A DNA stretch of 62,507 nucleotides, counting the filler, from Hausera hauseri (lineage: Eukaryota), in NCBI GenBank assembly GCA_046269625.1. It is 12 parts of 12 records of this genome, joined end to end, with 100 filler letters (N's around TTAATTAATTAA, not from the genome) between each part and the next. Parts side by side here need not be neighbours in the genome. Positions count along the whole stretch, not along the records: positions 24,600 to 29,364 come from JBJURY010444580.1; 11 more parts are not named here. The stretch is one strand, 5' to 3'. The notes beneath the pieces were generated by a model. It was not told the origin of the DNA and did no database searches. It saw only the letters and a list, made by a program, of their open reading frames with translations. Of the stretch, positions 2,428 through 50,660 are shown one piece after another. The translations under genes were made by a program, and so were the position numbers. Every line of letters begins with the position of its first letter. The stretch's first letter is position 1.

Positions 2428-3670
2428 CATGGTGCGTTCAATAAGTACCCGACCTGAGACAGAAAGCAATTTTAGGAACACGTAATTTGTATTACACAAA
2501 AAGACAAACATATATAGCTATCATTTCTCAACATAAGTCCCATTTCTCAACACCTATGTCAACGAGCCACCAGTTCGTCAAATGCTTGTTTGAAGAAGTC
2601 CGGAGGACAGTCATCAAAGAAAGCCTCCACAGCAACCCTCAAGTCGTCGTTGGACTGAAAGTTTTTCCCTCGCAAATGCTTCTTGAGGTGTCTAAAGAGC
2701 CCAGTCGGTCGGTGTCAAATGTGGAATGTATGGCCTGCAGCTTCAATTGTGGCCCGAGAAACACATGCCGTATGCACTGGCGCATTACCTCGCAGGAACC
2801 ATAGTGACATGGTCCTTTGCTTTCTTTTATGCCTGGTGTTGCAACGAGCTGACTGTAATATCCGGAATTGATTTTGACGCCGTTATCCTCAAAGTCCGTG
2901 TGGATGATATCCTTTTGATTCCAGAACACGGAAAGCATTATCGCCCGTTTGTGGCTGGTCCTTGTTCGCATCTTCAAAGACGGCTTCTCTCCAGGCAATT
3001 TTCACTCCACCGACTCACATTTGGTTTCAGACAAGTATATGCTAAGCGGGGTTTCATCCTCCTTAATTAAAATTGCCAGTAAAGTCTCCTGATGTTCATA
3101 AAGAGCCAAGTTGTTTTGACAGCTTTCCATTCGGTTTTGCATCATTTCACCAGAAAAGATCGGGGGACAAATCTGGAATATAGGTTTCTGATGCCCAACG
3201 CATTTAATTTTGCAGAGGCCGTACCGACGCTGATGTTCAATCGGGTTGCCAGCGATCTCGTGGTTATTCGACGCTCTTGCATGACTTTCTGCAATTTTCC
3301 ATCCACGGAGTTAAGTTTCTCTCGGAAGGCTAGTCTTTCTTCATCAAATACTGAGGTGCGTTCATCTTTAAAGTCCCTCACCCAATATTTCACAGTTGAT
3401 AGTGATGGGGCATCGTTGGGTATGTCGACTACAGAAGCTAAAGATTTCGCTGCATGTTTTACTCTGTAATACGATAAACTTCATTGCACTGCGGTATTCG
3501 ACGTCTGAAATCATGACTAAGACGAAAATTCAAATTCCACTGAAATACTTTTGCTACATACTGATAAACCAATATTGCAAACCTAGACATATAGCTGTTC
3601 TTGCAAATAGTGTCTGGTTCTTAGCCACATTCTTTCCTTGTTAGGTCGGATACTTATTGGACACACCACG
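2428..3670 (-). mobile_element. Full-length degenerate mariner (Tc1/mariner) element
   Basis: 28-bp imperfect TIRs (2428-2455 and 3643-3670), each flanked by TA. Transposase fragments include WVRDFKDERTSVFDEER and IMLSVFWNQKDIIHTDF...INSGYY. Several stops and frameshifts. Confidence 0.9.
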
Positions 3671-9675: not shown

Positions 9676-10330
9676 AAACCGATCTTTATACGCGTTTTTG
9701 TTATTCTTGCGCTTCACAAGAAGGTCTAACAGTTCCTGTGTGCCTAAAACTGCTTCTCTAAAATAAGTCATCGAAGCGATAAGAGCAGTATTTCGACAAT
9801 CGCCAGGTCAGCACTTTTTATTGTTATACCCAGTAATGTTTTTATTATCCAGATCCGGATTCTCATTTAAATAACGCTGGATCAAATCCCGAGTCACTTC
9901 AGTCATGAATCTAAAAAATATCCAACTTCTGTCGACAGATCGACAGTACAGTCGTAACAGATGGACCGTCTGTGTTTGAATATATTCGAACTGACAAAAC
10001 GGATTAGGTTCATGAAGCGAACCAGCCATGTCGGTCGAACGTGATAAACAGAGGACCAGAAGATCGAGAATAAGGCCGTAGTATTGAATAATAAACGACG
10101 ATAATTGGAGACCTCTGATTATACCAAAAATATTTGAATGCATCATGTCTTTGTATGAAGCACGAAGGTTATTTTTGGAACTCATGTAATCACCGATATT
10201 GTGATCCATAATCAAACGCAACAAACGATTTAAAAATGTCAAATCGATCTTTTCATACGTTTCCAGCAAAACATTACATTCATCATTAGAAACGATCCAG
10301 ATATTCTCCAGATTATTGATTCTGCGTCAC
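9676..10330 (-). pseudogene. PRPF8: PRP8 (U5 snRNP splicing factor) fragment with internal deletion
   Basis: [12 protein letters not shown]...[29 protein letters not shown]...[18 protein letters not shown]...YNNKKC*P, then a jump to [27 protein letters not shown] and a frameshifted TRIKIG. Confidence 0.93.
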
Positions 10331-10644
10331 CATTTTTTACATGCTGTATCATTTTTCTCCACATAAAGTTTATGAATTTTCGAATCAGTCAATTTCGACG
10401 AACAGTAACCAGAATATATATCATTTGAGTCTCTGAAGAAGAAGAGATTACGCAAATAAAATAATCCAAATTCATTGTTGCTGTAATCAAAATCAGATGA
10501 TCGAAAAAGATCTGAGGTCCCATTGAACTCTTCATTGCCACATCTGTCATAAATTTTGCGTTTATTATCATCTGATAATGTTTTATAAGACCGACTAATC
10601 AGGTTAAAAATTTTTTGTAATCGACGGTTGGAAAATATTAACAT
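10327..10644 (-). pseudogene. Partial J-domain (DnaJ/Hsp40 helices III-IV), in frame with the PRP8 fragment
   Basis: FNLISRSYKTLSDDNKRKIYDRCG matches F..I..AYEVLSD..KR.IYD.YG and is followed by an F/G/S-rich stretch. No HPD motif is visible. Confidence 0.62.
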
Positions 10645-10729
10645 CCAAATTATTACGAATTATTTGTCCAAAAAATGGCGTAATTATGACAATTTCAAAA
10701 ATTCAAAACAAATAACTTTTTATTGCATA

Positions 10730-11700
10730 TTAAAACAAATACATTTGTTTTTCGTTTTTTACAAGGTCAAGCAAAGGTTCATATTTCTCAGCAAACATTT
10801 CAACAACTGACAATGGTTCTCGCCATATGGCATATAAGAAGCAATAAGCCCAAATCTGATTATTATACTGTTTCAAATCTTTTTCCTTTAATGCTTCGAT
10901 CATATCTACAGCTGAATTGACTTTGTACGCTTCAAAGGATGACGATATTCCTCTAGTAACCATAATCGCAGAAAATTTCTTTAAATTCATTTTTGATAGT
11001 AAATTTCTAAATACCACTACAACACTGAAACAAGGATTATTTTCGAGTAAAGCATTTTTGAATAGCTTATCAACAAACAGCGGCAAAAAATTTCCATTAG
11101 AAATCTCCAGAATCTTTCCTGACAATCTCAATGCAAATTTAAATTCACAAACTCCCAATAAGGAGTTCGAAAATATCTTATTATACTCATTCAATATGTT
11201 AAGTGTCACCCTGTGAACAAATGTTCTATATCTTCAAATGGCGCATTACTAGACGCAAATTTCTTTACACACTGAATTTCTTCCGTTCTGGAGAACTAAA
11301 CTGTTTTATGCTTCAATAATAATAAAGCTCCAGCGAACAGACTACGTGAACAAAGTCTTCAAATGCAATCTTTTACTTGCTTTACATCACATAGTTTGTT
11401 GAGAAATTAATCATCTTCAACAGTTGTTCTTAGGATGCTTAATGTTGCACCAATTCCAAATAACAATGGTGAAAGCATTCCGTAGCATTTGGGCCAATGT
11501 CATTGTAAATAATTGGATTATTTAACGCGTTAATACATTCATCAATGTCCAAAACAAATGCATACGATTTGGCAATAAAGCCCAGACAATTGACGAAAAG
11601 GATGTAATTTTGCTTCTCCAACGCTTTGTAAAAATTCATCAATTTTGTTATATTGATTGGAAAGAATTGCACAACCAATTAGCCATGCATATTTAGTAGC
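10730..11700 (-). pseudogene. Unidentified alpha-helical protein remnant
   Basis: Coding-like ORFs of 159 aa and 79 aa separated by stops. No recognisable motif. Confidence 0.3.
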
Positions 11701-11825
11701 ATTATAAATTCCTTATTCTTTCATTTTGTCAATCAAATGTAAAGCCGTGTCAAGATCACCCATGTACAAAATCGTTTTAATAAACTGTCAAACGTAGCAT
11801 TGTTAAACTAAATCCCTCTTTTTGA

Positions 11826-11937
11826 AATTTTGGAGGCGGAAGTCGGGACCCGCCTATGGGCCCGACGCGGCGGCAGTGGAAACCCGGCCGTGTCCAACGA
11901 AATGAGCCAAACGGTAACGGCCGCTGTGGGCACCACA
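11826..11937 (-). repeat. Inverted LTR-like GC-rich segment homologous to 14189-14303
   Basis: The reverse complement starts TGTGGTGCC and aligns with the 3' LTR start over ~110 bp (e.g. cgccgcgtcgg, gggtcc(c)gact, aattt). Confidence 0.55.
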
Positions 11938-11938
11938 A

Positions 11939-14303
11939 GCACCATTTGCACATTTAAGCGGTGGCAAAAACATCAGCCAATCCAGTGGACACCTGAGTTG
12001 GCAGAAAAATTTGATAAATTACGCGAAGTAATTAAGACCGTCGACATTCTCGCTTTTCCAAAGCCTGATGCAGAACTTTTCCTTACTACAGACGCTTCAA
12101 CCACCGCGGTAGGTTCTGTATTGCACCAGATCTATAAAGGAGAAAATCAACAGCTAGAATTTTTCTCTCGCATGCTAACATCCGCTAAAACTAGATATTC
12201 AACGTTTGATCGAGAATTATTGGCCATCGTTCTTGCTTTAAAGCATTTCTCCCACTTAATTGTCGCTCGCCATTTTACTATACGAACTGATCACAAACCC
12301 TTACTTAACATCATAGCTATGAAACATCCTTCCACGTGTCACAAACGACAGACATGATACTTGTCGACATTTAACTTCAACATAAAACATATTAATGGGG
12401 TTAATAATTTAGTTGCCGATTTTTATCTAGGTCGGTTAGTTCGATTAATTTTTCACCGATTTTTACGCAAGCTCAATTTCAACAGAAGCAGTCACCTCAA
12501 GACATGCTTAATTCTTTTAAATCTTGCACAATTGTTTACGGCGTGGCTTTAGACACTTCCAAACTAAGTAATTCCATAATAATTCTCGCACCATCATTTC
12601 AAAGGCAAGCACTTAATAGCGTACATTCGCTACACAACCCTGGTGCTACAGCCAATTTTCGATTACTCCATCGACAAGTAATATGGCCGCCAATGCGTTC
12701 TGATGTGCTGACATGGGTTAAGGAGTGTGTGGCTTGCCAAAAATACAAAACAACTAAGCATTTAAAGCCACCACTGTTCCACTTTCCCTGCACATCGCGT
12801 TTCGAATCCGTTTATATCCAAATTGTCGGCCCTCTTCCTCCAGACAGCGGTCATGAATTCATACTCACCATGATGGACCGTTCCTCGCGACGGCCAGAAG
12901 CCATTCCTCTAGGGAGCACAAATACCGACATTATAGCTGACGTTTTCACTCGTACATTGATTAGCAGGTTTGGATCATCCCGTTTTATCATCACGGATTA
13001 GAGTCCACAGTTTGAATCCAACCTGTTCAAATCCCTTGTTAACCGAATGGGGATCTATCATATACATACTACATCTTACCATCCCCAATCGAATGGCCTC
13101 CAAGAACGCTTCCACCGCACATTGAAAATGTCACTAAGAATCCTTGCAGAGTCCAACATTAGTTGAATAAATCTTCTTCCCTTTGTTCTGCTTGACTGGC
13201 GGAACACTCCGTCCACTTCTATGGGATGCTCACCTACTGAAACCTTATTCGGAGCTCCTGTACGATCACTATTCGAACTAACTGCCCTAGACGACACTCC
13301 TACAGATGAAACGATACGGGCAGAGCCAAATCACTTCGGTACGGTCAGCAAAGATTTGTTCTGCAGGTTACTTCATAGGAAAAAAAACATATTTACCCAA
13401 ATACTTGTATTCGGCAAAATTCGTATGGCTAAAAAATCAAACGCCGTGCAATTTCAAACTTCGGTATCTGGGATCCTATAAACTGATACAATTACATTCA
13501 CACAACGCTATTATTTCTAAAGACGGCAAAGAACTTACAGTGCATATTACCAACTTAAAATCAGCTTTCTTCGTGGACGACACTTCATCAATCGACACGT
13601 CAACCTCTTTTCTTACACCTACACTTCCTGCTGTTCCTATATCTGTTGCTACACCTGTTCCACCTCCTTCTTCTGCTCCTATTTCTGCTTCATCATTTTT
13701 TACACCTTCTACATCTATTCCTATCTCTCATCCTACCTCTACCACTACCCCTGTTTCATTTTCTACTTCTACTCTTTCGCCTAACACAATTCCAATTTCT
13801 ACTTCAATTTTCGTGTTTCCTCCTCCATCCGCCACTACACCTTTTGTCGGTCCATTGTCTTCTAACACTCTCTTGAACACCCCTAACCATCCGTCTCCAA
13901 CAATCTCTCTTCCCCCTGCATCTTCTTCTTCTCTTCATTCTGACTCGTCTTTGCACGATACAACACTTACACCAAAATTCGACATTTTTTCCCAAACTTT
14001 AAACTCAGCAAGCAAACACATCGCATACAAACAATACACTCAGAGTAGCATTCAGTATGTATAGCATAGAAAAATCAGTAGAAGGCACCCAACGTCTTGT
14101 TCACATTAAGCACAAATGACACAGACACTTTTCGTTTGGTAATTTTTTCTTTCTGTCTCTTACTCCTTAACCTTGTCACAGGGGGTGATGTGGTGCCTAC
14201 CACGGCCGGTGCCCTTCGTCTAATCTGGTTGGGCATGGTTGTGCATCCGCTATCGCCGCGTCGGATCAATAGCTGGGTCCGACTCTTCGCTTTAAGAATT
14301 TAA
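11939..14303 (+). mobile_element. Ty3/Gypsy 3' half: RNase H, integrase, S/T/P-rich tail, PPT and start of 3' LTR
   Basis: TDASTTAVGSVL, YSTFDRELLAI, TDHKPL, H-H-C-C zinc-binding motif, YHPQSNGLQERFHRTLK. PPT-like AGGGGGTGA precedes TG at 14189. Closely similar to 59020-61010. Confidence 0.92.
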
Positions 14304-19821: not shown

Positions 19822-20828
19822 TTTTGCTCAGCAAACCCATGTTGCTCACGATATATTGCATATATCTGCAAACTTATTCATTAGACTCAGAGTCTTGTTT
19901 GTACTTCTCATCGAAATCTGCATTCCGACCCAAACTGATATAATTCACATTGCTAAGGGTAAACGTTTCCGAATAGGTGGTATAACTCCCGTTTGTTGAA
20001 AAGTCGTTTGAAATGTAACAAGCACAAATTTCGGCAATCGCATGTTGCTAAACAGTGCATCTTTGTAAAACGTAGTTGAACCCTTAAGTATGGTGTAAAA
20101 TACGAGTTCTGTGCGTTTCATCGGGCAACAGGCATTTTGCGTTTCCAAGTACAATGGATGTGCCATGAGCACAGGTGGTTCTATCTTTACTCCATGTACG
20201 TATAATCGTGTCTCGGTAATTTTCAGTATAGGAGTGAGATTTGCAACGGTGGTTTTCAAACAAAAAACATTGTCGGGCGTTTGAGCCGAATCATGGTTTT
20301 AACACCATATAGTAGGTATTTCGGCTGATCGAAAAAGTCAAAGCACAGAGGTCCACACATTGTAGGTGCTTTTGATTCCGCCATCCGTGCCCGACGGTTT
20401 GCTGCAGTGGCGTCATATCCGATGGTTTTCGTCAAATGAGTCGTTTTCGTATCAGTACTGTAATTTAGAGTTGTTACAATGAGTGCTTTGATACTGTATA
20501 GACTGGTGTTGCCTTCAATTTTGACGCTGCTTAGAGTCAGTGAAGCCTTCTGGAACAGTGTAAGGAAAAGGTAATTGGCTGGTGTGACAGTGTCTGTTGC
20601 AGTAAGACCCGTTGATGAATCCTTTTTAACAATGACTTTTACGTAGGATAGCGTATCTTTCAAATCCACGTATTCATTGTCCGATGCCATAATGTTGAAT
20701 TGAAAGTCAATGTTATCGTCCATTGAAACCAAATCAACGGAGTATATTTCTTCAAACGCCGCATTGTCAATAACAACTTGTGGTGCGCCTTTGCCAAATA
20801 TACACAAATAAGATTTTGCAGATACCAT
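19822..20828 (-). pseudogene. Polinton major capsid (double jelly-roll, hexon-like) protein
   Basis: SAKSYLCIF...IDFQFNI...EYVDLKDTLSYVKV, PANYLFLTLF, CFDFFDQPKYLL.GV..IRLKR, RLPKFVLV. Confidence 0.88.
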
Positions 20829-20835
20829 TTGTCTC

Positions 20836-21170
20836 TCAATTGAAAATCATACGACGACGACGTTTGTTTATATTTGATGAGCTTGATGATAATCTACGGC
20901 GTTTTCTCAAGCCACTACAAGCGAATTGTTTTTTGTCTGATTCAACGACTCCCGGTGCACCCTTTTTTATTTCTGACAAGGCGTGTACCATCAATGATGG
21001 TAAAGTCGGTTTGTTTTTATATATTACGTCCTGTGCTGTTTTTGCTGCCACAACTCAAATACGCTTCAATAGCGGAAATATGCAAAGCGCCATTGGACGC
21101 AACCATCCAGAGTTATACTGTTTATAAACGAAATACGGCAGTTTACCGCCCTGTTGGGGTTTAGTGTAAA
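20836..21170 (-). pseudogene. Small Polinton core-like protein (Q-x-G motifs, basic C-terminus)
   Basis: QQGGKLPYF..KQYNSG...FPLLKR...KRRRRMIFN, immediately upstream of the major capsid gene. Confidence 0.65.
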
Positions 21171-21202
21171 TGGAAACTATTTCGGAATCAATCATTTTGG
21201 AT

Positions 21203-22231
21203 TTAAAGGAAATGAAGAGTTAGACTAGTTGTAGTACCGTATGGAATTTCAATAAAGTAGCCCGCGTCGCATCGGATATTCACTTCAACAATGTTTATAG
21301 ATGCGGATACCACAGGTAGGTACGTTGGATTAACGAGCTTGACTGTCACATTGTCTCCCGCAGTATACTTGCAGCTTTTCGGATAAATTGCACAGAGTAG
21401 CGGTACACGTACGGTGCCGATCACTTAAATGTAAGTTTGACTTAGTTCAGTTTTTAGTTTGGGTTTAAATGTTGCAAGGTGTGCCGCCGCCGTCTTCGTA
21501 TTCCATACCTCAAACCACTGTTTTTCAAAACTTAATACTATGGCCAAATTTTTGTCCAATGAAATTTCGATAATATCCTTAGCCACTTGCATCGAATTCG
21601 AAAACTTTAAATTACGCATTGTACTTTTTATTCGAGGAAAAATGTTGACAGAGATGTGCTACAGATTCGCAATAGACATTGTCTCCAATCGATACGTATG
21701 ATGTTGATAGCCTTTCTGCTGTATATGTAAATTTTACCGCTGTCTGATAATATACGGGACTTAATCTCGGACAAACTACATATTCACTTTTAATATGTTT
21801 ACCTTTGTACTCTGTATTTTTGAATACAAATTTCTGCGCCATATCAGAAGACTCAAAGGTAACGGTAAATTCAAAATCTGTCATAAAATGTAAGGTTTGA
21901 TCTGAAATAAAACACCGATTTTGCCGTATAAACCGTAGTTTGCTTCGGTGGTGGAAATGGTCGATTCTCCAACTGTTATTTTATTGTTACTAAATATCAG
22001 AGGACAAGAATGTGTTTTGGTTTCAGTAACAGTTTTGTTGTACGCTATATTTATACTGCATTTCAATGTAACCGGCGCATAGGGAAAGTTAAATTCTGTC
22101 AGTGCAACCTTTAATTTTCCAGATACATCCAAAGGATTGTTCCAATCCACAACGTATTCACTGGCTGAATTGTTCGGACGAGTCGTCTGACAACTGTTGC
22201 TTGGCAACACCACGTAAGTACTCACGTTCAC
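21203..22231 (-). pseudogene. Polinton minor capsid (penton-like) protein, copy 2
   Basis: YVVLPSNS...NNSASEY...PLDVSGKLKVALTEFNFP and VPLL...NPTYLPV...IVEVNIRCDAG...LTLHF. Confidence 0.82.
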
Positions 22232-22269
22232 AGTGATCTCAATAATGATTATGCAGTGCGTTTATTATC

Positions 22270-23255
22270 TACGACGTCGAAAATGTAACGTCAAATGTGT
22301 CGTTGAACCAAATAGAAATTTAATGGGTTCCCAAAATTCATCAAGCATATACACGGAAGTACTGTGCACAATATTGTGAGACAATGACGAGTACATGGGT
22401 CTAAGAATATTAACGCGAACAATTTCACCCGATGTTTTGTACGTGTCAGAATCCAGTTCGATAAAAGCCAGTAGTTATTTACGTTCTTCACCAACGAGTA
22501 CGAATTGTATTTGGCAACAATATGTTGTCCAACAGGGGTTTGTTAGAAATCACGTTTTGGGAAACCCAGATACCGAGCCAATAATTCATCAAAGAAAAAA
22601 TATGTTACATTTTCATGTATTGTAAGCGAAATATGGCCATCTGCGTTTATTTCACATGTCTTTACAGCTAATGTAGCCGTTTTCTTCACGTATTCACACA
22701 ATTCCAGTTCCGTTTCCATTAATGAATCGTGTGGTATAATATGTGAGCGGAAGACTGATTCTGACTTAGTCCACTTTACTATAATATCGGATCCCGCATT
22801 GGATGAAAAGCCCAATTTTTTACCAATTATAACATGTCCACCTAATCGTAGACATTTTGAGTGTACATTGACTGATTGAAAACTCTATGCCTGATTATCA
22901 GCTATAGATTTAAACTGAATTTCAATGGGATTTCGATGCACTAGTTTTATACGGTAGTTTGAAAAATAATCATAAACCGAGAAACGTAATATCGAATTAT
23001 TTTGAAGAGTATATCGGTTATTGTGTTGGATTGTCCGCAAACGACTTGAAATAGGATACGTTTCTTGTCCGCTAAAATAAATACCACTGTTCTGACCTAT
23101 TGTCATTGGTGAAAATGTAAATGTGAATTCCGTTAAAACCACTTCTCACGTCCCGTGACGTAAATCGACCGGTTGATCCAAGTGCATGGTAAATTGTTTA
23201 GCGGTATTGTCATTGTCATCATGTTGTGATAACGATCTGTTACTTTCAAGTACAA
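22270..23255 (-). pseudogene. Polinton minor capsid (penton-like) protein, copy 1
   Basis: N-terminal LVLESN...NTAKQFTMHLDQPVDL...EVVLTEF and C-terminal PMYSSL...EPIKFLFGSTTHLTLHFRR. Confidence 0.75.
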
Positions 23256-23266
23256 GTTAATGCTGC

Positions 23267-24336
23267 TCATTGAATCTGTGATGCAAAAATCCAACTAAGT
23301 GCAGTGTATCCGTACCACTTGACGAGATATTGTTTATTCGAATCTTTGACATATGAACGTCGAATTTCTTGAATACGATATACATCGGGTTTCTCGGGCA
23401 GTACCTGCAGTTCTTGTTTGTAGAATTTACCGCATATTTCCTCACCGTTTTTATCCTCTAAAATGTACATGACAGGTGTTTGTTTTGTGTTGACTGCCGA
23501 AATGCAGAAAACCTCGTCGCTCCAGTTCTGATTAAAATTCTTAATGAACGGTGTCGTAGTTATTTTCGAAATACGTACGTAAGTACAGATTTTACATTTT
23601 TGGCGTTTAATTGCCTGTCACTATGTTCGGTTTGATAAAGCCACATGTCCAAATCGTCGATTACGTCAACCCGGTGCATTCCGTTGATTCCGCAATGTAT
23701 CGAATGATTCTATGCATGGATAACATCTGGCAGTACATCTACCCGGGGTTTTTTGCCTTGCTTCGTAAAGAATTTGTTTAGGTGACCGCAAAATGTTCGA
23801 TTAAATCGTTCAAAGAGTGCAGCCTTGTATTGGAAAAACATCAATTAGTGGTTTACACCAAACCGTTTCAAGACCGCTGCAACATGGGCGTTGTAGAATT
23901 CCTTACCCAAATCCGTTTGTAAATGCTTCGGCAGTTGCTATTGTTGTATCAGTGTCTGAACAGCGTCGGCAATCCATTTACCGGATTTAGATTTCACAGC
24001 AATTGCACGTGAAAAACGACTAAACACATCACTACATGTCAGCATGTACCGATACCCATTGTTGATGCTGGCGTACGGAATTATTTACATGCGATCCATT
24101 TGTCATACATTATTTACACCAGCAGCACAGTATGCAGGAGTTGGAAACCGCCTTCTTATTGATTTATTTAGACTGTATGTTAGCTGTTTCTCCAGCCAAC
24201 GTTGGGTCTGTTGCCAAGTCTGTTTGACAGTCTTTGCCAGTTTGTCGACGCCAGTATACCCGACGGGATGACGCGGGTCAAACCACACGTCGCCTATCGT
24301 CGGTGTTGTCGTCGCCGGTTTTGCTGCTGCTTGCAT
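23267..24336 (-). pseudogene. Polinton retroviral-like integrase with C-terminal chromodomain
   Basis: WFDPRHPVGYTG...WLEKQLTYSLNK..RRRF, NNGYRYMLTCSDVFSRF, LQTDLGKEFYN, KAALFERFNRT, GKFYKQELQ, YLVKWYGY. Confidence 0.92.
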
Positions 24337-24599
24337 TACAATAATTTGAACGAAACGTAAATGAAAGATTCGGTAAACTGGGGCAGAAAGATGAAAACCA
24401 TGTACCCATTTCGCCGAATAACCATATACTTACCGTCATTGTTTATACTATGATGTTGTTGCAGAACCAATGAGTCCACCCAGTAATGACGTGACAATCN
24501 NNNNNNNNNNNNNNNNNNNNNNNNNNNNNNNNNNNNNNNNNNNTTAATTAATTAANNNNNNNNNNNNNNNNNNNNNNNNNNNNNNNNNNNNNNNNNNNN

Positions 24600-25341
24600 T
24601 TCTAGGCGGAATTTTTTCGTCTACTGGAATCCATACTTCTCCGAGCTTTCTTTCCTTATTAATTTTAGTTCCTTTTATTGGTCCGAGTTCGATTACCTTT
24701 GAAGTATTCAAATCTACCGCGACGTTTGGTAGACGTCCCAATATATCACATCCTAGCACTACGTCATCTGTCACGTGTTCCATTATAAAAAATTCATGTT
24801 GGAATGTTTGTCCCATTATCTTAAGATTATGGTTCAACTTAAATTTTAGTCTTGACTCTTGTCCGAAATGTCCTATACTTCAGGGGTCGGTTGCTAGTAA
24901 TAAACGTAGCTGATTCCGTAGTGTTTTTGGTATCGATCCGTCCTTTATAAATGATTTCTCTGATCCGGTATCTACTAGTGCGTATACCTCCCAATCGTCA
25001 ACACTAATTTTGACGAAGGGCCTACCTTCTTTTATCTTAGGTTGTCTAACGGCGGATATTTGGTACCAATTTATACTAATTTCGGGTACTTTATTCTCGA
25101 TTACTTGCCTTAGTTCTTCGATGGGATATAACCCATTAATGACGCCGTTTTCATTGTTTTGTTCTGGTATATTGATTAGTGGTACTTGATTGTTTGGATT
25201 ATAGGAAAATTGCATTCGTGGATTATCCCAAATTGACGATTTAGTTTCTATATTCCGTGAGATCCTTGGTGAGTATATCACACTGTAGTCATCCACCGAT
25301 AATTCAGATTTTTCTTGAATTCGGTACATTTTCCGTAACAC
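24600..25341 (-). pseudogene. Retropepsin (Ty3/Gypsy-type aspartic protease), start of pol
   Basis: RPFVKISVDDWEVYALVDTGSEKSFI, then after a frameshift QHEFFIMEHVTDDVVLGCDIL. Continues to ..KIPPR at the contig end. Confidence 0.88.
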
Positions 25342-25639
25342 GCCGTATTATTTTGTTTCTTTATAAGGATCTTCGTAGCTGAAAGGCCTACGATAGATTT
25401 CCGAACTATAGGAATTAATAGATCTCTTATCGCTGTCTCCGTATTGCGGTGTCGAAGGGCGCAACATTGGCAAAGGCGGCCTAAGCGTATTACGATTGCA
25501 TATCTTAAAGACCGCGTCTCCTCCCTTAGGTTCATCACCATCTGAATTGTATCTTCGGAATTTCATATTTTTTGTCCTTTCGTTTCCGATTATAATAGCC
25601 AATGTGTCTCTCCACGTCGCCTTTCCATTTGTTTTCTTC

Positions 25640-27393
25640 GTAAGCTTTCAAAAATTTTCCAAACGGTGTTATGACTGCAGTTAAAATTTTGCATAAAAAT
25701 CCGGTCAAGGTAAATATTTCATAGACATTTATAATGGGTTGAATTATGGCCTTTATGAGTTGTACCAAGAAGTAGATGGCCAAAAATCCAGATGCAGCTT
25801 GTCAAGAGATTAAAAATCTTCCCCAGATTTTATATAGTATCGCTGTAGTGACTCTTTGATAATGATTAACGCCAAATAGAGATTCCCATTTTGCTTGATA
25901 GCGAGTGTCATCCTTCACCGTCGACATGGATCTATTTAGCTTATGCGTACGCTGTCAAGGGAAAGCTAGAAATTGTCGAAATGCCACAATTTCCTTTGGT
26001 CTGTAAATTCCTTTACTGACGGTGTCGGCGAACTTATCGTCCGTTATACCCTTTAGCAAATTTGTCTCGGTTAATTTGACAGGTGTGGCTGTTATTCATC
26101 CATTTGGTAAACTCACCCAGTCTGTCTCAGTTCTCTTGAACATAGGTTCGCTTAATCCTGCTTTGAATTCTTTAAAAATTGTTGGATGGGTTGAATTTTC
26201 CAATAGAACCCATGTAAGTGACATCACCAATTCTTGAATATAGCGTTTTTTTCTATGTTTATGGATACGTCCCGTTTTTCTAATTCGTAGATTAACAGAA
26301 TTTCTCTAGTAACTCTTCCAAAAATTCCTTCCTTCATTGGAATTACGGGTGATGCTATTTCTGAATTTGCATAGATTAAGGCTATTTTGGTCCTCATAAT
26401 TTCTATATCCAATTTACAGTCATTTGCAATCATTTTATGATATCGTTCTGCTAATCCGATTTGTCCTTTATAATATAAGTAAAATTACGAGTCAAGTAAC
26501 CTTCTATTCTTACGTCTTGTGTTTCCAAAGCAAAAGTAGTTATTGCAGCTTCTGCCACAAAGAACGCTTCATAATTGGTTGCGTACATTACTACATTACA
26601 ACGGGAAAGCACTGCTTTAATCCGTGATCCTTGGAGATCAGTATCATGGGTGTGGATTGTTCGGCTACGTTTTTCCTTGACCTGGCATTGTTGTCAATTA
26701 TGCCCACATATCTTTTTCCTGTGGTTTCATTAAAATTCATTTCTTTTATTTTAATAAAGTTACTATCGTTCATAGGGGGTGGAATCCAAATAACTATCGA
26801 GTTTCGGAAAGCATAGGCACCATTTTGGATACGACACTTCTGATTTTCGGTATATGCTTTTGTAACACTATGGAACATCATCTTTTGGTTCCTCATTTTT
26901 GTCTCACAGAAATCCACTACTACTATTCCTGCTTCCTTTCCTTTTCCTGTATCATATCCGGTGTGCATATCTAATTTCCCAACTGCCACTTTATATACTC
27001 GAATTATCGTTCCTGGTTGGGCTTCTAGCTCCATCCAATCCCATCTTAATCTTCCGGTTTCTTTGGCTTGTTTACACTGTTGTCGATCTAGATCCATAGG
27101 AATTAGTGGAGTCGTTGGTTTTACGATTGATGAATGTCCGTGCATGTTTCCGCAGTGGAAAATTCTTCGCGATCTTCGTAACATACACTCATTCCATCTA
27201 TTGCGATTAGTTCGCCTTTCTGATATAGAAAATACTTTTTCTCAATAGTTACTAACTTGTGAGTTCGGGCGTCTTCACATAATTCCAGATCCATCAGGGA
27301 ATATTTTTGACCTATCTTAAACTTATCACAGTCGCATACCCTGATTACACCGAGTTGTCTTATTAACATCATAAGTGTTATTAGTTTAATCAT
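25640..27393 (-). pseudogene. env: Chuvirus-G-like (class III / gB-type) envelope glycoprotein
   Basis: Signal peptide MIKLITLMMLI; CDC...YSLMDLELC; IFHCGNMHGHSSIV; CKQAKETG; DCKLD...EGIFGRVTREILLIY; GIYRPKE...FLAFP; membrane region IWGRF...ASGFLAIYFLVQLIKAII. The motif order matches chuvirus-type glycoproteins. Frameshifted. Confidence 0.8.
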
Positions 27394-27623
27394 CCAATTT
27401 TATTCGCTATCTCTCGTTGAGTTGGTAGGTATTAAATTTCTTACCACATCCTCAATTCTAGTAGTTGGACTGTTTCCATCTTCGTCGTCAAATAGTTTGG
27501 ACCAATTTCCTTTAAAGGATTTTCTTTAATAGCTAAGTAAAATATCACTTTCCTCAATTCTTCTTTAGTATTTTCTACCATAATTTTCTCGATTACGATT
27601 TCATCCGGTAGATTACTTTTGAA

Positions 27624-28052
27624 TCAAAATATTTTCATTATCTTTGCTGCGTCATATATTGCCTTTTCTTTATGATCTAATATATCTTTCCTTGATCCCG
27701 AATAGTTCACTATTTTTATAGTATTTCTCAACAACTCGTTCAATTCTTCGCTATCGGAATTAATCGTGGACATGGGTAGTTGTCTTAGTTCTCGGATCAG
27801 AGCGGCATTTTCTTCAGTATCATCTCTTATTTTTCTTGGCCTTCCAACTGGTCGTCTCTGTTTCGGCGCAGTCAGTATGGCTCCACTAATCGGTACTAAA
27901 TTCTTATCATAGTGTTCCTTATCTTCTTCACTTTGGAGGTAGTCAAAGTACATGGTAGGCTTTCGAACTCCCATAATGCGTCCTACGCAATGTTCATCTC
28001 TTGCTTTCCTTACAGCCTCGTCTTTTGTCTGTTCATCGGTAATTATAGCCAC
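27624..28052 (-). pseudogene. AT-hook-containing segment, same frame as the Ubl ORF
   Basis: Canonical AT-hook RRPVGRPRK. A single stop separates it from the Ubl ORF. Confidence 0.55.
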
Positions 28053-28064
28053 TATTTTATTTGA

Positions 28065-29364
28065 TTACTCCGGAATAATCCCAACGTCTATTAGTAGCTC
28101 GGGTTCGTCCAGTATCCTACCTCGAAAATATAACCGATAATTTACTTCATCCTTACCACTATTTTGCACTATCCATTGTTTTACTTCTTTAATCGATGTT
28201 ATCGTTGTACATTCACTTTCTCTCTCTTCCATCCAATCAGCTGATATTTTTACCTTAATCACTGTTTCGGGTTTGGCTCTCAAGAAATCGGTGTATTTCT
28301 TTATCAATAGTCTGCGTACTGAGCTATAAACGACATTTTCGCTCGATAGTTTAGTTAATGTAGGGATCAATTGTCTCAGTTTACTTTCTGTCATGTTGAC
28401 GTTAATTTGTTCGATTAAATCTTTCTCGGTCATTGCGGGATCTAAAATCATCTCTAAATTAAATCGTCGGTCTATTGGGAGAGTATCCATTTGTTGAAGT
28501 TGGATGGGCGTTTTTGGGTTTTGGTTGTACACATCGTCCAAATAAGCATCCCATCCTGAGTCGTCTGTAACGTCTGGAAGTCCATAATCTAGCGATACCG
28601 TGGACGCGTTTCGTACACTTTCGCGGGTTTCGTTAAACCTCGGCTGTATTTCTTTCATTAAATTTGTTCGAAACTCTATTTCGTTTCCACATGCAAGTTA
28701 TATCGTTTTTATTGTCGGTCCTAGTTCGTCTGTAAGGAACAATCCTTTTCTTTCGTAATCTGTTAATTCGCTAGTTACATCCGTTAACCATCTTTGTACG
28801 ATTTCTCTTTTATTCATTATTTCCGATTGCGTGATCTTATATTTATTTTTATAAGTCTACAATTCTTTGCCTAATTCATCTAACTTCGTAGCTCTTTGCT
28901 TTGTGCGAATTCGCAATTCTATATTTTTAACTTGAGTCGTCAATTGTCGTGTCTTGTCGTCATCTATTTCTGCCATTGTCGATAGCAGCGATACTAGTCC
29001 GTGCATTTCCTTTAGAGTTTTCGAATCTGGATCTATTTCTTCAATCAGTCTCTTTATGAATTTAGCCTCGTGCGGTGTGAGGTGACAATCTTTCGTTATT
29101 TCTATCAATTCCACGTGGCAATTCTGGTCGGTACCCGATGACCAATCGAGAGGACGATGTAGAAATTTTACTATTCTAATGCAATTCGATGATTTGGACA
29201 AATGTCCAGCGTTGTTAACTGACATATCGATATGTCATCTATTGGCCTTGTTGTCAAGTGTCGTACACCTTCTAGGCGGACACCTTTTAGTCGCATTGAT
29301 AAGGAGATATTTTTTGTTTCGCTTATAATTCCATTTCTTCGACCGTCGTATACAATTCTTCTGA
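28065..29364 (-). pseudogene. Unknown polyprotein segment ending in a ubiquitin-like domain
   Basis: ORFs 28857-29225 and 28065-28658 share a frame. The C-terminus VIKVKI...TSIKEVKQWIVQNSGKDEVNYRLYFRGRILDEPELLIDVGI resembles ubiquitin's TI..VK.KI....G......RLIF.GK.L.....L.DY.I. Confidence 0.6.
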
Positions 29365-32260: not shown

Positions 32261-33553
32261 CTAGATCGTCCAAAAAGTTTCGGGCAGCAAAATTTCGACA
32301 CTTCCATAAACGTTTTATTTACAAAAATACTCCAATTACTAATAACAACATAAATTTATTCAAAGTAAAGTCAATCATTCTCAAAAACATGGTGACATCG
32401 TTGTGCAAGTAATCTGAACTGTTTTAGGTACCAATCACGGTTTTTAGAAGCAAAAAACTCATGACAAGCTTCTTCAACCTCCTCAACTGTTCCAAACCTC
32501 CGACCACGCAAGAAATGCTCCACTGAACGAAACAAGCCATCGTCTGTTGGTGCTATGTCAGGGATATAGGGAGGATGTGGTAATACTTCAAATTCATCTA
32601 ATTCTTTAATTTTTTGTTGGGTTAATTTAGTACGATGTGGCGGAGCATTGCCGTGCTGCAAAAGAGCACGTTTTCGGTTCGAATAATTTTTCTTTCAAAA
32701 TGTTGGAAACACGATCCATCCGTTGGCAGTAAACAACAGAATTAATGGCTTGACCATCTGGAAGAAACTTGAAATACAAAACACATTCAAAGTTCCACGA
32801 AACACTGATCATCATCTTTTTACCAAAGCGGTCTTGCTGAACAACCGATACTGTTTCTTCCACACACTTTACCCACTGCTTCCTTCGATTATTATTTACC
32901 AAAAAAATCCACTTTTCATCAAAAGCTACTATACGCTTCAAAAATCTGTCATCTAATGGATTATTTAGCAATTTCTGGCATATTTCAGCACGTCAAGTCA
33001 TACGGATTAAGAATGTAACCAAGTTGTTTCAAATGGTTATGAATTGTTTGCTTGTATGTACTCAGAGCTAATGCCAAATCGCTTGTGCTTGAGTGAGGTT
33101 GCTCCTGTAACACATCACACAACTCTTGCTTGTTTACTATACATGGCCTTCCTGGTCTAGGTTTGTCTTGGAGGCTGACGTCACTTTCGTTGAAACGTTG
33201 AAACCATTTTGCAGCAGTAGATTTGCTTACTTTCCCTTCAAATTCAATACTGCAAATTTCCATAACAGCGTCTCTAGTAGACAAACCTTTCTTCCAGTGA
33301 TGTCGTAACAATACTCTAATTGCAATTTTTCATCGAACATTTCCCTGATATTTGAAATCTGATGTTTTATTATATGGCACATTACCAAATCTTTAATATC
33401 AACCAATCAGAAACAATTATCACTACTGCACTGAAAATTTCACCAGGTCAATTTCACGCTACATTGTAATTAGTAATTAGAATGTTTTTTGTAAATAAAA
33501 CGTTTTTGGAAGTGTCGCAATTTTGCTGCCCGGAAACTTTTTGGACGACCTAG
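32261..33553 (-). mobile_element. Full-length degenerate mariner with ~80-bp TIRs
   Basis: TIRs CTAG(A/G)TCGTCCAAAAAGTTT... at both ends flanked by TA. Motifs WFQRFNES..LQDKPRPGRP, IVAFDEKW, QHGNAPPH, HPPYIPDIAPTDDGLF. Confidence 0.93.
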
Positions 33554-38382: not shown

Positions 38383-39570
38383 TTATACAGCGACGGTTCC
38401 GTTTTTCGTTATTTCAACCTCGGCATCAAATACACCGTAAATGTACATCACGGTAGACAGTTACAATGCTTTGGAAAAGTGAATCTCCAGTCGCAGGTTT
38501 CCTTGCTGACATAGTTGAGTCTGTTCAACGTCACAGTCCGGCGCCTGGACAAAAGTGAAGAATAGATAGGTGGACTTGAACAGATCCATCGATATACCAT
38601 TATTGATATTTTTTTCAGCAAACCCATGTTACGCACAATAGATTGCATATATGTGCAAACAAAATCATTAGACTCAAAGTCCTGCTTGTACGTCTCAACG
38701 AAATCCGCATTCCGACCCAAGCTGATGTAATTCACATTGCTATGGGTAAACGTTTCTGAATCGGTCGTATAACTGCCCATTTGTTGAACAGTCGTTTGAA
38801 ATGTAACGAATATAAATTTCGACAATCGCATGTCGCCAAATAGTGCATCTTTGTAAAATGTCGTTGAACCTTTGGATATGGTGTAAAAGACGAGTCCTGT
38901 GCGTTGTATCGGGTAACAGGCATTTTGTGTTTCCAAGCCCAGTCAATGTCCCATGAGCACAGATGGTTCTACTTTTACTCAACGTACGTATAATCGTGCC
39001 TCGGTTATTTTTAATATGGGTTTGAGATTTGCAACGGCGGTTTTCAACCAAAAAACACAATCGCTTCGTTTGAGCCGAATCATAGCTTTAACACCGGGCA
39101 GTAGGTATTTTGGCTGATCAAAAAAGTCAAAGTACAGCGTTCCACACATTGTCAGTGCTTTTGATTCTGCCACCCATGCCTGACGGTTGGCCGCTGTGAG
39201 TCGTTTTTGTGTCTGTGCTGTAATTCAGTGCCGTTTCAATCAGGCTGGTGTTGCCTTAGATTTTGACGCTGTTCAGAATTAGTGAAGCCTCCTCAAACAG
39301 TGTGAGGAAAAAGTATTTAGCCGGTGTGACAGTATCCGTTGCAGCAAGAATTGTTGACGCGTCCTTTTTAACAATAACTTTTACATAGAGTAGCGTATCG
39401 TTCAAATCTAGGTATTCATTGTCCGATGGTATAATGTTGAATTGAATGTCAATGTTATCATCCGTTGAAACGGAATCAACGGAGTAGATTTCTTCAAATG
39501 CTGCATTGTCAATAACAACTTGTGGTACCGTTTTGTCAAATATACACAACTCAGATTTTGCAGATTCCAT
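38383..39570 (-). pseudogene. Polinton major capsid protein, second copy
   Basis: MESAKSELCIF...EYLDLNDTLLYVKV, FDFFDQPKYLLPGV, ending GNLRLEIHF...YGVFDAEVEITKNG. Confidence 0.9.
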
Positions 39571-39577
39571 TTGTCTG

Positions 39578-39918
39578 TTAATCGAAAATCGTACGACGAC
39601 GCCGTTTGTTTATAGCTGATGAACTCGATGATGCTCTACGGCGATTTCCCGTCATTAAGCCACTGTGAGCCAATTGTTCTTTGACTGATGCAACGACTCC
39701 CGGTGCAGCGCTTTTTATTTCAGACAAGGTGTGTTCCTTCAGTAATGGTAAAATCGATTTGTTTTCATATAGTACGTCCTGTGCTGTTTTTTCTGCCACG
39801 GAACCGACACGCTTCAACACCGGAAATGCTAAGCGTGCCAATGTATGCAAACATCCAGAGCCGTACTGTTTACCGACGAAATACGGCAGTTCACCGTCCT
39901 GCTGCGGTTTACTGTAAA
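39578..39918 (-). CDS. Small Polinton core-like protein, second copy
   Basis: QQDGELPYFVGKQYGSG.LHTLARLAFPVLKR...KRRRRTIFD. Confidence 0.65.
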
Positions 39919-40591
39919 TGGAAACGATTTCAGAATTAATTATATTGTTGTTGTTGTTGTTGTTGGATTCGACGGAAATGAAGTGTTAAACTGGTTGTAG
40001 TACCGTACGGAAATTCAANNNNNNNNNNNNNNNNNNNNNNNNNNNNNNNNNNNNNNNNNNNNTTAATTAATTAANNNNNNNNNNNNNNNNNNNNNNNNNN
40101 NNNNNNNNNNNNNNNNNNACCATCCAGACACTTCATTCTTTGCTGACCACTGCTTCTACTTCCTGGTATTTTGCCTGTGGTGACCAAGTTCTCCAAACCT
40201 TTTCTTAAAATATGGCCAATCATAGATGCTTGTCTCTTTCTGATCTTAGTGATAAGTGTTCAGTAGTATAGGATGCGCAATCGAGGCCGCATTTCTGGTA
40301 CAATGCAATAATAATACTGCTGCTGCTACCATTTTATAATAAATCTATCTATGGAACATAGAGCCCCTTTTATTCATGATGCTTTCTGGAGCACTATATA
40401 CTTTTTTACAAGGAGAAGGTACTGGTCCCTTGCTTAACCCACCTTATTCAATTCTTAAGACAATCATGCACAGGATGAGATGCTGTCCTAATTATCTACT
40501 TCCTTGTTTCCAGGGATCACATTTAGCCTATTAGTGTGTTTAATTTTTCAGTTTGTTTTAAGCTAATACAAAACTATTTTGTCATCCTCAG

Positions 40592-44269: not shown

Positions 44270-47200
44270 TGTTAGTAACACATTTCCAACAACCTGGTAA
44301 CAGTCTCAGCAGGCCAGCTAAACCAAGTTAAGGGTGGCCGGGGGTAATCAGGTCCTTCGGTGAATTGGGAGTAGTCTACCCAGCACGTGAAGTCTGGAAT
44401 CGGCAAACCATGCGGATGAACAACAAATTTCATTGTCAACGGATGGCTTACCAGCAGTGTCGTGAAACGCATAGGGCACTGTGAGACTCGTAGTACACAA
44501 TGGCCATTCACTGCATCCTGTCTCCATACCAGTTGTCAGGCTAAGACCGCCACTGGAGTTGAAGGGGTCTGGAAGAGAGAGTGAGGTTGACGAACGGCGC
44601 TACTCTTCCTCACTTAAATCCAAGTAAAGCATCAGTCATGTCTTCACCATTCACCATCAATCACCCAAAAAGCCCTGTGGCGATGGGGGAGTGGTGAAAC
44701 GGCAGAGTGTGGATTACTCAAGCTGCAGTCACAATCCTGCACACAGGCGGACCAAGGCATAGGGTCGTTCCCCATTAAACTGAGGCAGTGATGGGGTCCG
44801 GCAGCCCTCTTTAGGAAAGCTCTGCTCGCCTCCAAGCATGAGGAAGGGGGCTAGAAAAGGTGCCCTAAAAACAGCCTGCCTCACCACTAACCGGGCCAGC
44901 ATACAGCGGCTGGTAGGATCCCACCCCAGCGGTTGAACAAATAAGAAAAACAAAAAAACATGGGAAATTATTTCTCTTGGCGCGTGGAATGTGCGCACCT
45001 TCACTGACTTATCTGATGCCAGCAGAAAAGAAAGAACTGCATTAATAGCACGAGAATTAGCATGTTATAACTTGGACATTGTAGCCCTCAGCGAAACTAG
45101 GCTTGCAGAGGAGGGGCAACTAACTGAATTAGGTGGCGGATACACCTTCTATTGGCGCGGTCGCAAAAGTAATGAACGTCATGAAGCAGGCATGGGCTTA
45201 GCCATAAAAACGCACCTTGCTCAAAACCTCACCAGCCTGCCGAAAGGAATAAATGATCATTTAATGACTCTTCGCCTCCAACAAATCGATGACATTAATA
45301 AATGTCTACGCCCCCACAATGACAAATCCAGATGATGTGAAGATAAATTTTATTACGATCTTGAGTCAGTAATTTCCTCCATCCCAAAATCTGAAAAATT
45401 AGTATTACTTGGAGATTTTAATGCTAGAGTTGGGGCTGATTATCAGACCTGGAAGGGAGTGCTGGGAGTGCATGGTATTGGAAAAATTAACAGCAATGGC
45501 CTGCTATTACTCAGATTGTGTTCCACCTTTGACCTCACCATAACCAACACTATCTTTTGGCTGCCCACTAGAAACAAGACATTGTGGATGCATCCCCGGT
45601 CAAAGCACTGGCACCTAATTGATTATGTCATCACAAGACAATGAGACATACAAGATGTTCGTGTCACTAAGGCAATGTGTGGCGTGGAATGCTAGACAGA
45701 TCATAGATTGATTGTATCCAAGATTAGGATCCAGATTTTACCTAAGAGGCGCCCTCAAGGCAAAACAGTTGCTAGACGTCTGAATATTTCGTGCCTGAGA
45801 AAGTGCAACGTGACGAACAATCTAGCATCTGACCTCAGTGAAAAACTTAAGAATATTACGTTCGATCATGGCCAAGCTGAAAATAACTGGCAACTCTTTA
45901 AAAGTACTGTTCATTCAGTGGCCTTGGAACAGCTGGGCCAAGCACAAAGGAAACATCAAGATTGGTTTGACGAAAACGATCCTGAAATTAAAAATCTGCT
46001 GGAAGAAAAAGGCAAAACATTCAGAAGCCTACTCAACGATCCCTCTTCCACTTCCAAAAAAGCAGCATTCTCAAAAATACGTAGCACCTGTCAAGCCAAA
46101 CTACGAAAAATGCAGGATAACTGGCTGAGTAAGAAAGCCGATGAGATCCAGGGCTACGCAGACAAGCATGACCATCGACGCTTCTATGAAGCATTACAAT
46201 CTGTATATGGGCCACAACACTCTGGGTTGTCACCTCTTCTTAGCACTGATGGAATGACTCTTTTGACGGACACTGCAGACATCATAAAACGATGGACCAC
46301 TCACTTCAGTGATATACTTAACAGACCATCACAGGTGAATGAAGATGCAATAAATCGCATCCCACAAAGAAAAATTAGATATGAGCTGGACTTTCCACCA
46401 ACACAACAAGAAGTCATCCGAGCAGTCAAACTTCTCTCCTGTGGAAAAGCCCCAGGTTCGGATGCCATCCCAGCCGAAGTGTACAAATATGGAGGCGATG
46501 CCCTGTTACAAAAGCTAACTGATCTGTTCCAGACTTTCTGGTCAGACGGGATACTACCCCAGGACTTTAAAGACGCATCGATAGTACATCTATATAAGCA
46601 CAAAGGTAGCCGTCAACTCTGTGACAACTACAGAGGTATATCTCTCTTGGTTGTTGCCGGAAAAATCTTGGCACGAGTACTACTGAACCGGCTTACTAGT
46701 ATCCTTGAAGGCGAACTACTACCAGAGAGTCAGAGTGGCTTTCGTTCAGGCCGTGGGACTGTTGATATGATCTTTGCAGCACGCCAGTTACAGGAAAAGG
46801 CTCAGGAACAACACAGAGAGCTGTACACCACATTTATTGATTTGACCAAGGCCTTTGACTCAGTTAATCGGGAAGGCCTATGGAAAGTTCTTGGTAAATT
46901 TGGTCTCCCTGATAAGTTCATCAGTATTGTGCGTCAATTTCATGAGGGTATGATGGCCAGCCTCTGTATTAATGGAGAAACCTCTGATAGCTTTCCAGTC
47001 ACAAATGGTGTAAAACAGGGATGTATTCTGGCACCAACATTGTTCAGTCTAATGTTTACGGCTATGTTATCGGATGCTTTCCATGACTGTAGATCTCAAA
47101 TAGGTATCAAAATAAGATATAGATCTGATGCAAAACTGTTTAAAACAGGTCGCTTTAGGGCCCAAAAAAGTGCAAAGAATCAACGATTCTTGATCTTTTG

Positions 47201-47460
47201 TATGCAGATGATTGCGCTTTGTATGCCAGCTCATTGCAAGATATGCAAACAGCCCTCGACAGCTTCTCCGAGGCATGTGAAAATTTTGGACTCACTATTA
47301 ACATCGGTAAAACTGAAATTATGTTTCAGCCTGTGCCGGGGAATCAATACATCGAACCACAGGTAATGATAAAACAGCAGAAACTAAAGGCGGTGGACAA
47401 TTTTACATACCTGGGGAGCACCCTGTCCAGATCAGTAAATATCGATGAAGAGGTAAAAGT
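44270..47460 (+). mobile_element. RTE-clade (BovB-like) LINE: 5' UTR, APE endonuclease, reverse transcriptase
   Basis: WNVRT, DIVALSETR, LLGDFNARVG, WMHPRSKHWHLIDYV, KAPGSDAIPAE, NYRGISLL, FIDLTKAFDSV, GVKQGCILAP, YADD. Few disruptions. The 3' end is cut by the linker. Confidence 0.95.
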
Positions 47461-47954
47461 NNNNNNNNNNNNNNNNNNNNNNNNNNNNNNNNNNNNNNNN
47501 NNNNTTAATTAATTAANNNNNNNNNNNNNNNNNNNNNNNNNNNNNNNNNNNNNNNNNNNNCGATATTTAATCTGTAGCATATGTTATTTTTGCCCTCAAT
47601 TCATTTACTCGTATTTTCATCATCCTAGAAGAGCTCTACTTACTATTACTAATACGCCAATTCCCCAAATACTTCCCACAAGATACTTTCGACTGAAGCA
47701 ACAGTCAACAATCCGAATCGAATTTCCAATTTATTGATTTAATCCTTCTACGATAACTAGATCACCACCAATTATCTTTCAAGTACCTCTACCACATATA
47801 AATGTTATGACTCTTCTACGACAGCCATCTTCAATACCACATCCACGTTACCAACCTGAACAAATCACTAGATCATTGCCTGAATTGCCAGTGCCTGCAC
47901 TTTCAATAATACCTATACCAATCATTTCTTACAGTCCATCACTACCAGTATAAT

Positions 47955-48420
47955 TACAGGAAGATTGGTTCCCTGTCTTCAATAAATGCCCAATTGATCT
48001 TATATCTGATCTAGCTCCTCTTGATTTATGGGCAACATTACAATCTTTCTATTATGATCAACTTCCTACCTATGAATGTACTATATGTCTTACCGAAATG
48101 ATAACAGTAGTTCAATTTCAATGTAACCACAAATTATGTGCAACCTGTTTCAATAAACTTCGATCTCAATCTCTTAAATCAATCAACTTGGAGGATGCTC
48201 TACAAATGCCTTTTCAAAATGGTATTTCATGTCCCTACTGTCGCCAGCCATCAGTCTACTATCACTTCTCCTACACCTACGACAACCGTACCCAGCGATT
48301 GTGTCATTGGATGAATCCTGTAAATGATGCTACCCTGACAATCAGACCCAAAAATCTCAGCTTCATTGATGTTGGTACACAAAGTGATCCGGAGGACCGA
48401 ATCCTGTCAAAGGGGGGAGA
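47955..48420 (+). CDS. C3HC4 RING-finger ORF at the 3' end of an LTR element
   Basis: CTIC-x10-CNH-x2-CATC-...-CPYC. The frame runs through EDRILSKGGE, encoded by the PPT AAAGGGGGGAGAAA, into TGTTGGG at 48423. Confidence 0.75.
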
Positions 48421-48422
48421 AA

Positions 48423-48645
48423 TGTTGGGATTTGTTAGTGACGGATTCGTTAGTGACAGCATTTAAACATGTGGCAACATTTAGACATCATTTAAACGCT
48501 GTATATCAAGATTACTGTACATTTTGATTCCTGAACATTTAAGCATTGTATATTAATTGTTATACAAATACAGCATCTGATAGACAGTTCTTCTTGTTCT
48601 TATTACTTCCCTTTTAAATGCTTGTGAGCCCCTTGGTGGGCATCT
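48423..48645 (+). repeat. Probable 3' LTR
   Basis: Starts TG directly after the PPT. The right end is uncertain. Confidence 0.5.
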
Positions 48646-50349: not shown

Positions 50350-50660
50350 TGTTATGGAACTCCGGTAAACGCCCTTAATGAGGCAGAGAAGTAATAAATA
50401 ATATGAGAATTCTTATTGAGTCTTAAATGATCATAGGCGCAGGTATATTCTTTCAATACCGAACCGCCACCGGACTCACCCTTTAGATCAATTGCAAATA
50501 TTTATATGTTACTATAATTCAGAGTAGATTGTAACAAATAGTTATATATACAAAGATAGTAACACGAATTCACAACACAAATAGGTCTACTTTCTTCAAA
50601 TATTGTTATTGCTTCCCTTTCTTGTCCGCTCAACCCACTTACATAGGTTATCATTAAACA
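50350..50660 (-). repeat. Probable 3' LTR (TGTTTAATG...CCATAACA)
   Basis: Preceded by purine run AAGAGAAAA, with a CATATAAA TATA-like box and homology to 1587-1800. Confidence 0.5.

Follow-up and report, generated by a model that had tools for sequence, protein, structure and literature searches.

A decayed retroelement copy in Hausera hauseri carries a class III-type envelope region directly before its protease

A stretch of 62,507 nucleotides from Hausera hauseri (GCA_046269625.1), composed of 12 contigs joined by 100-N spacers and called the window below, includes a decayed member of a multi-copy retroelement family, with the coding region for a class III-type envelope protein (Env) directly before the protease. 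The copy occupies positions 24,600-29,364 of the window, which are one entire contig of 4,765 bases (JBJURY010444580.1), and therefore both of its ends are assembly ends and the adjoining sequence is unrelated to it. Gag, reverse transcriptase (RT), integrase and the long terminal repeats (LTRs) fall outside this contig. What is present is likely to be the central portion of a flatworm GAG-ENV-POL element of the Ty3/gypsy type, similar to the giant gypsy-like LTR retrotransposons Burro/GYPSM1 (Arkhipova and Yushenova, PMC6431247). We regard a Burro-like element expressed as a polyprotein as quite probably the correct explanation. In this regard, the analysis supports the proposal of a first-pass annotation of the window that the contig is a decayed, enveloped gypsy-like element whose class III-type fusogen sits upstream of its protease.

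Order of features on the contig

On the minus strand, a weak ubiquitin-like (Ubl) domain is followed by a class III (Monjiviricetes-type) fusion glycoprotein and then by a retropepsin (Table 1). Evidence from Pfam, from motifs and from hydropathy bears out the feature order that the first-pass annotation had given. That annotation had also staked its reading on a class III match, and the glycoprotein indeed matches PF24664. Specifically, two of the five Env pieces scanned carry the match, at 26591-27241 (profile positions 66-120, E 1.3e-6) and at 25535-26305 (profile positions 441-601, E 1.6e-15), which places the two profile segments in the correct order. The remaining three pieces give no fusion-protein match, and the N-terminal piece has no sequence match in the PDB. 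Together with the hydrophobic stretches at both ends, the PF24664 match gives the predicted product the traits of a class III ENV.

The retropepsin matches PF13975, PF09668 and PF13650 more weakly than PF00077. There is no PDB sequence match for the protease region and no Pfam match for the short piece at 24601-24879. As judged from the protease end of pol, ENV is thus located upstream of POL.

The domains assigned before Env are less distinct. The Ubl domain was picked up weakly by three methods: it aligns with PF00240 at E 0.0012 (19 bits, under the Pfam cut-off of 25.4) and with ISG15 at E 0.014, with many ubiquitin chains also at weak scores, and ubiquitin-like clusters appear at 0.79-0.81, which is lead level only. 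The first-pass annotation had listed this domain and an AT-hook; the former stands at sub-threshold strength, while the latter amounts to a GRPRK motif with no Pfam match. Farther upstream, the open reading frames (ORFs) at 28857-29234 and 28266-28856 match no Pfam family at E<=0.001. The region 27624-28856 has no relative among 1.84 billion protein representatives, and its single-sequence AlphaFold model (pLDDT 38) is unusable. The segment 28266-29364 is likely an accessory part of the polyprotein behind Gag.

Table 1. Features of the retroelement contig, in minus-strand order (positions are those of the window)
Feature	Positions	Strand	Evidence and remarks
Upstream coding region, no family match	28266..29364	-	Frames open at 29171-29362, at 28857-29234 and beyond, interrupted by single stops; truncated at the contig end
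Ubiquitin-like domain (weak)	~28032..28265	-	PF00240, ISG15 and cluster leads; one stop at 28065-28067
AT-hook-like GRPRK motif	27831..27845	-	Five-residue motif match only
Region with no family match between Ubl and Env; slot of the Burro BCL2-like domain	27441..27830	-	Pfam and PDB searches
Hydrophobic segment, a likely internal signal of Env	27337..27393	-	Mean hydropathy 1.57 over 19 residues; directly precedes the start of the cysteine-bearing ectodomain
Class III-type (chuvirus/herpes simplex virus (HSV) gB-like) glycoprotein ectodomain	25802..27336	-	PF24664; four frame switches and three stops
Env membrane region	25670..25801	-	Hydropathy 1.50 at 25801 and 1.68 at 25726; within the PF24664 match
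Overlap where the coding path leaves the Env frame for that of the tail and protease	25535..25647	-	Env frame open to 25538, tail frame from 25647
Polar linker of ~180 residues, predicted cytosolic	25030..25570	-	Rich in S, N, P and Y; one stop at 25348-25350
Retropepsin	24733..25029	-	DTGS at 24972; PF00077 E 8.8e-7, above cut-off; stop at 24880-24882
Start of post-protease segment	24600..24732	-	Ends with IPPR, the last four codons of the contig

Reading frames and other copies of the junction

The contig can be read as coding sequence from end to end. With seven frame switches, the path comprises 1,589 codons and meets 11 stops, compared to 116.6 expected from base composition. The optimal seven-switch path meets 10 stops when the minus strand is read and 30 when the plus strand is read; across 30 shuffles, the corresponding counts are 59-79. 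Each switch can be placed within a window bounded by stop codons, and four of the seven are inside the ectodomain; therefore, switches in this contig are not gene borders. The stops and frame switches of this copy look like neutral decay, and a copy in this state would make nothing.

The tail ORF that follows Env (TTG at 25602) and the protease ORF (GTG at 25341) share a common frame that is interrupted by a single TAA at 25348-25350, as the first-pass annotation had observed. Its account of the frames left out the stop of the protease itself at 24880-24882 and a frame difference between Env and the tail: the membrane region of Env is in a frame other than that of the tail, and two stops at 25532-25537 bring the Env frame to an end. 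Because Env ends in another frame than the tail and protease, a polyprotein can be inferred from this copy but not read from it directly. Accordingly, the earlier claim that the fusogen resides within one polyprotein is likely to be correct for intact members of the family, although this copy does not display it. Nevertheless, the continuous coding path and the copy-specific breaks favour a single ORF in intact elements.

Between Env and the protease we find no CCHC knuckle, no capsid match and no non-coding gap that could hold an LTR or a primer site, in agreement with the earlier statement that no LTR, primer binding site or gag intervenes. A CCHC knuckle is also absent from the contig as a whole. 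These observations bear on whether the linker of 180 residues could itself be a short Gag, making this an ENV-GAG-POL element like those of two mites. The linker does occupy the position that Gag would have in such elements, which were found through their short GAG (Chary and Hayashi, eLife 2026, PMC13524379). However, it gives neither a capsid nor a zinc-knuckle signal, its composition is polar, it matches no Pfam family, and at least 640 codons of coding sequence are located upstream of Env. We consider this arrangement highly improbable.

Additional copies of the element are available in run X1, which contains 0.41 of the words of the stretch. No RNA data set was listed as containing it, which says nothing for or against expression. 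A total of 4,226 X1 contigs align on the stretch, 130 of them at >=99% and 2,404 under 90% alike, and all 30 of 30 bins are covered. These other copies are diverged, unlike the >98% identical intact copies described in PMC13524379. The X1 copies vary in length inside five of the seven switch windows (12 of 21 rows for four of them, with the env-tail window treated separately), whereas the rows listed include none for the windows near 27441 and 26240. In the region 25150-26050, most covering contigs differ from this copy at its stops 25348-25350, 25802-25804 and 25955-25957. As expected under neutral decay of this copy, a third-position bias is absent among the differing places (10 of the 40 listed, from a total of 185).

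The same collection demonstrates that the env-tail junction occurs in other copies, contrary to what would be seen if it were unique. Among the contigs listed, one extends across 25415-25867. The junction is also crossed by six joints, three of which have a shorter side of at least 31 letters, and a seventh joint connects Env with the tail over a 508-base skip. Because several diverged copies span it, the junction is a family trait and not a one-off chimera. Such a chimera, in which a deletion or nested insertion had fused env and pol from two different elements (the env coming, for example, from a BEL/Pao element with a chuvirus-like G), might have been suspected from a contig that is short, heavily decayed, and atypical exactly at the junction. 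But the alignments of several diverged contigs extend to both sides of this point, there is no LTR-like or non-coding gap, and the protease matches retroviral and gypsy-type models and no BEL/Pao model. This explanation is largely refuted, and we assign it a very small probability.

The departure of this copy from its relatives falls at approximately 25557-25580, where depth is 223 compared to 32,467 and 704 in the neighbouring bins, and 22 contigs have loose ends at the junction. Taken alone, the length difference that the spanning contig exhibits at the junction would place Env and the tail in one frame. This is relevant to the possibility that the element is of the same type but that its intact copies encode env and pol in two separate ORFs that overlap, with pol expressed via programmed frameshifting, reinitiation or splicing. 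The Env frame is shut by the stops at 25532-25537, and nearly all depth at that place (61 contigs) has a further stop; in addition, the tail frame opens upstream of those stops, with an ATG near 25566. PMC13524379 mentions three ORFs and permitted gaps between ENV and POL of up to 2,000 bases. However, stops in the Env frame are equally expected if the family reads this stretch in the tail frame. Moreover, the switch is located where this copy departs from its relatives, the remaining six switches have the appearance of decay, and the Env of Burro is in frame (PMC6431247). Separate ORFs are therefore an unlikely arrangement, and a single polyprotein is the likely one for intact members.

Several observations weigh against a Burro-like polyprotein element and should be considered together. 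This copy has Env and the tail in different frames, and the stops that close the Env frame are common to the family, which fits separate ORFs as well. The spanning contig carries three further gap positions that are unplaced, and X1 may be the sample from which the window came. The score of the Ubl domain is under its cut-off, and no Bcl-2 domain is matched in 27441-27830 by Pfam or PDB searches made with a decayed single sequence and no profile-profile comparison. Because RT is absent from the contig, membership in Ty3/gypsy rests on the type of protease and the likeness of Env, and the likeness to Schmidtea elements detailed below was judged by eye and is unscored. The ectodomain ends in two hydrophobic stretches, and the proposed topology would fail if both crossed the membrane.

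Finally, no intact relative was recovered by any protein or contig search. The C-terminal part of Env has no relative among proteins of 451-2000 aa, the tail and protease have none among proteins of 612-2000 aa, and the Env region has none among proteins of 872-2778 aa, in databases that may be poor in eukaryotic transposon proteins and in length ranges that do not extend to proteins of Burro size (~4,900 aa). Likewise, scans of viral and metagenome contigs yielded no relative, intact or longer.

Proposed expression and other content of the window

How might intact members of this family operate? The following proposal is based on the anatomy of the contig and on what is generally known of viral polyproteins. 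We hypothesize that intact elements encode one long polyprotein comprising Gag, accessory domains that include the Ubl, Env, the linker and the protease, followed by RT and integrase. As an internal signal, the hydrophobic stretch at 27393 would direct the ectodomain to the lumen of the endoplasmic reticulum, and signal peptidase would cut behind the stretch. A single membrane pass would then bring the chain back to the cytosol, where the linker of ~180 residues would hold the protease and Pol. In this manner, the linker would keep Pol attached to the glycoprotein up to the point at which the retropepsin frees itself, thereby bringing the enzymes together with the fusogen at the budding membrane.

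The first-pass annotation had argued that this gene order would demand release of the protease in a manner dependent on membrane topology. This need appears to have been overstated, since a signal segment and one membrane pass should leave the protease in the cytosol. A special release step would be called for only if the two C-terminal hydrophobic stretches both crossed the membrane.

The linker includes an LYPxxxL motif just before the protease, at 25111-25131 (-). The motif resembles the ALIX-binding late domain of HIV-1 p6. It is found in 0.42% of 20,000 shuffles and was one of five motifs tried, post hoc, and we treat it as a lead only for late-domain function. In the linker, YxxPhi motifs are not enriched (2 versus an expectation of 2.9), and it contains neither PTAP nor PPxY. 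Separately, a 32-residue stretch before Env, at approximately 27504-27599 (-), gives a weak match to the mitochondrial fission protein Fis1 (E 0.32) with no Pfam support. A more elaborate scenario is that the contig represents a Burro-like lineage outside free-living planarians, in which the linker functions as a budding module whose LYPxxxL recruits the endosomal sorting complex required for transport (ESCRT) from the cytosolic tail of the envelope rather than from Gag, and in which a Fis1-like piece fills the BCL2 slot. We consider this improbable.

The other 11 contigs of the window include no relative of the env-protease element, and a search for tRNA genes returned none. Other coding pieces in the window are as follows. 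On one contig, at 9808-11233 (-) and 11812-13001 (+), a fragment of spliceosomal PRP8 (PF10598, E 1.4e-39) and a weak DnaJ piece (E 0.0003) adjoin a gypsy RNase H/integrase, which may reflect the capture of host genes by an LTR element. A gypsy-type pol family is represented twice, at 11966-13583 and 59049-60645 (77-89% alike), and the contig of the second copy also carries a gag-like ORF at 57229-58050 (DUF7041, E 0.003). Two regions, 19822-24499 and 38451-40018, are related decayed copies that are 80-86% alike and have no Pfam match; their ORFs look like Polinton capsid and integrase genes. Also present are a RING-finger ORF at 47954-48466 (+) (PF24921, E 1.6e-8) and an unbroken 521-codon ORF at 50502-52067 (-) that has no Pfam match and carries a hydrophobic stretch close to its end. 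The regions 2642-3480 (-), 32374-33329 (-) and 44937-47363 (+) comprise two remnants of mariner-type transposases and a LINE endonuclease/RT.

Comparison with known envelope-bearing elements

The closest described layout is that of planarian Burro/GYPSM1, reported in 2019, in which Env is in frame between gag and pol and follows a ubiquitin-like domain (PMC6431247). As described there, Burro elements are 25-30 kb in size and include an N-terminal Gag with CCHC knuckles, MATH, dUTPase-like, RT, RNase H and integrase domains, and long LTRs. A BCL2-like domain lies between the Ubl and Env, and a dUTPase-like segment comes after the protease. Decayed Burro fragments with stops and frameshifts are known from Dugesia japonica (PMC6431247). 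The contig similarly presents a Ubl (weak in this case), a mononegavirus-like Env and a protease with no gene border between them, and is likewise a decayed fragment, a match of layout by description and not by sequence. Unlike Burro, no BCL2-like domain is detected between the Ubl and Env, and a single frame is an inference here; the contig is too short to show Gag, MATH, dUTPase-like, RT, integrase, LTRs or the giant size of Burro. Membership in this group is likely on the basis of three features, one of them present weakly.

A second point of comparison is the GAG-ENV-POL errantiviruses with an HSV/gB-type ENV in Nematoda, Bryozoa and Platyhelminthes, among which intact Schmidtea elements reach up to 215 copies (PMC13524379). 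The element resembles these, especially Platyhelminthes_C1a (Smed_errantivirus_1-6), in having a gB/chuvirus-type Env before pol and in being multi-copy. By eye and unscored, its Env shares F-x-E-x-x-G/loop/T-P-x-x-L and C-x4-Y-x-T-N-Y with six Schmidtea rows, and these motifs were not seen in the 15 insect, 15 nematode and 10 bryozoan rows compared in the same way. Unlike the intact Schmidtea errantiviruses, the copy here is broken and, again by eye, lacks several of the ectodomain cysteines of their rows.

Certain nematode endogenous retroviruses reportedly carry gag-env-pro-pol as one continuous ORF, a phrase for which our literature search gave no match. Their ENV/POL order is flipped (Sacco et al. 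2022, as cited in PMC13524379), and the element shares with them the placement of ENV before POL. By eye, the motifs in common with Schmidtea are missing from the 15 nematode C1 env rows. Anakin belongs to the BEL/Pao lineage, with env after pol. Its elements carry a chuvirus-like glycoprotein (Dezordi et al. 2020, PMC7642597) and are therefore comparable in glycoprotein class; unlike Anakin, the element has its env before the protease, only retroviral and gypsy-type protease models match, and no knuckle is present. Troyka elements were dropped from the comparison because none encodes an envelope, according to the available text of PMC12440569.

For the published class, an open question is how one polyprotein yields capsid, fusogen and enzymes in usable ratios, and a further one is whether such elements form infectious particles. 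A truncated, dead copy makes that question no more testable than do the intact, high-copy elements of Schmidtea. The contig would be of modest importance if its host belongs to a flatworm group with no recorded elements of this type. Although the first-pass annotation had offered the contig as a candidate for an undescribed system, its gene order has already been published, for Burro/GYPSM1 (PMC6431247) and for GAG-ENV-POL elements (PMC13524379). The element is thus a further example of these retroelements rather than a new kind.

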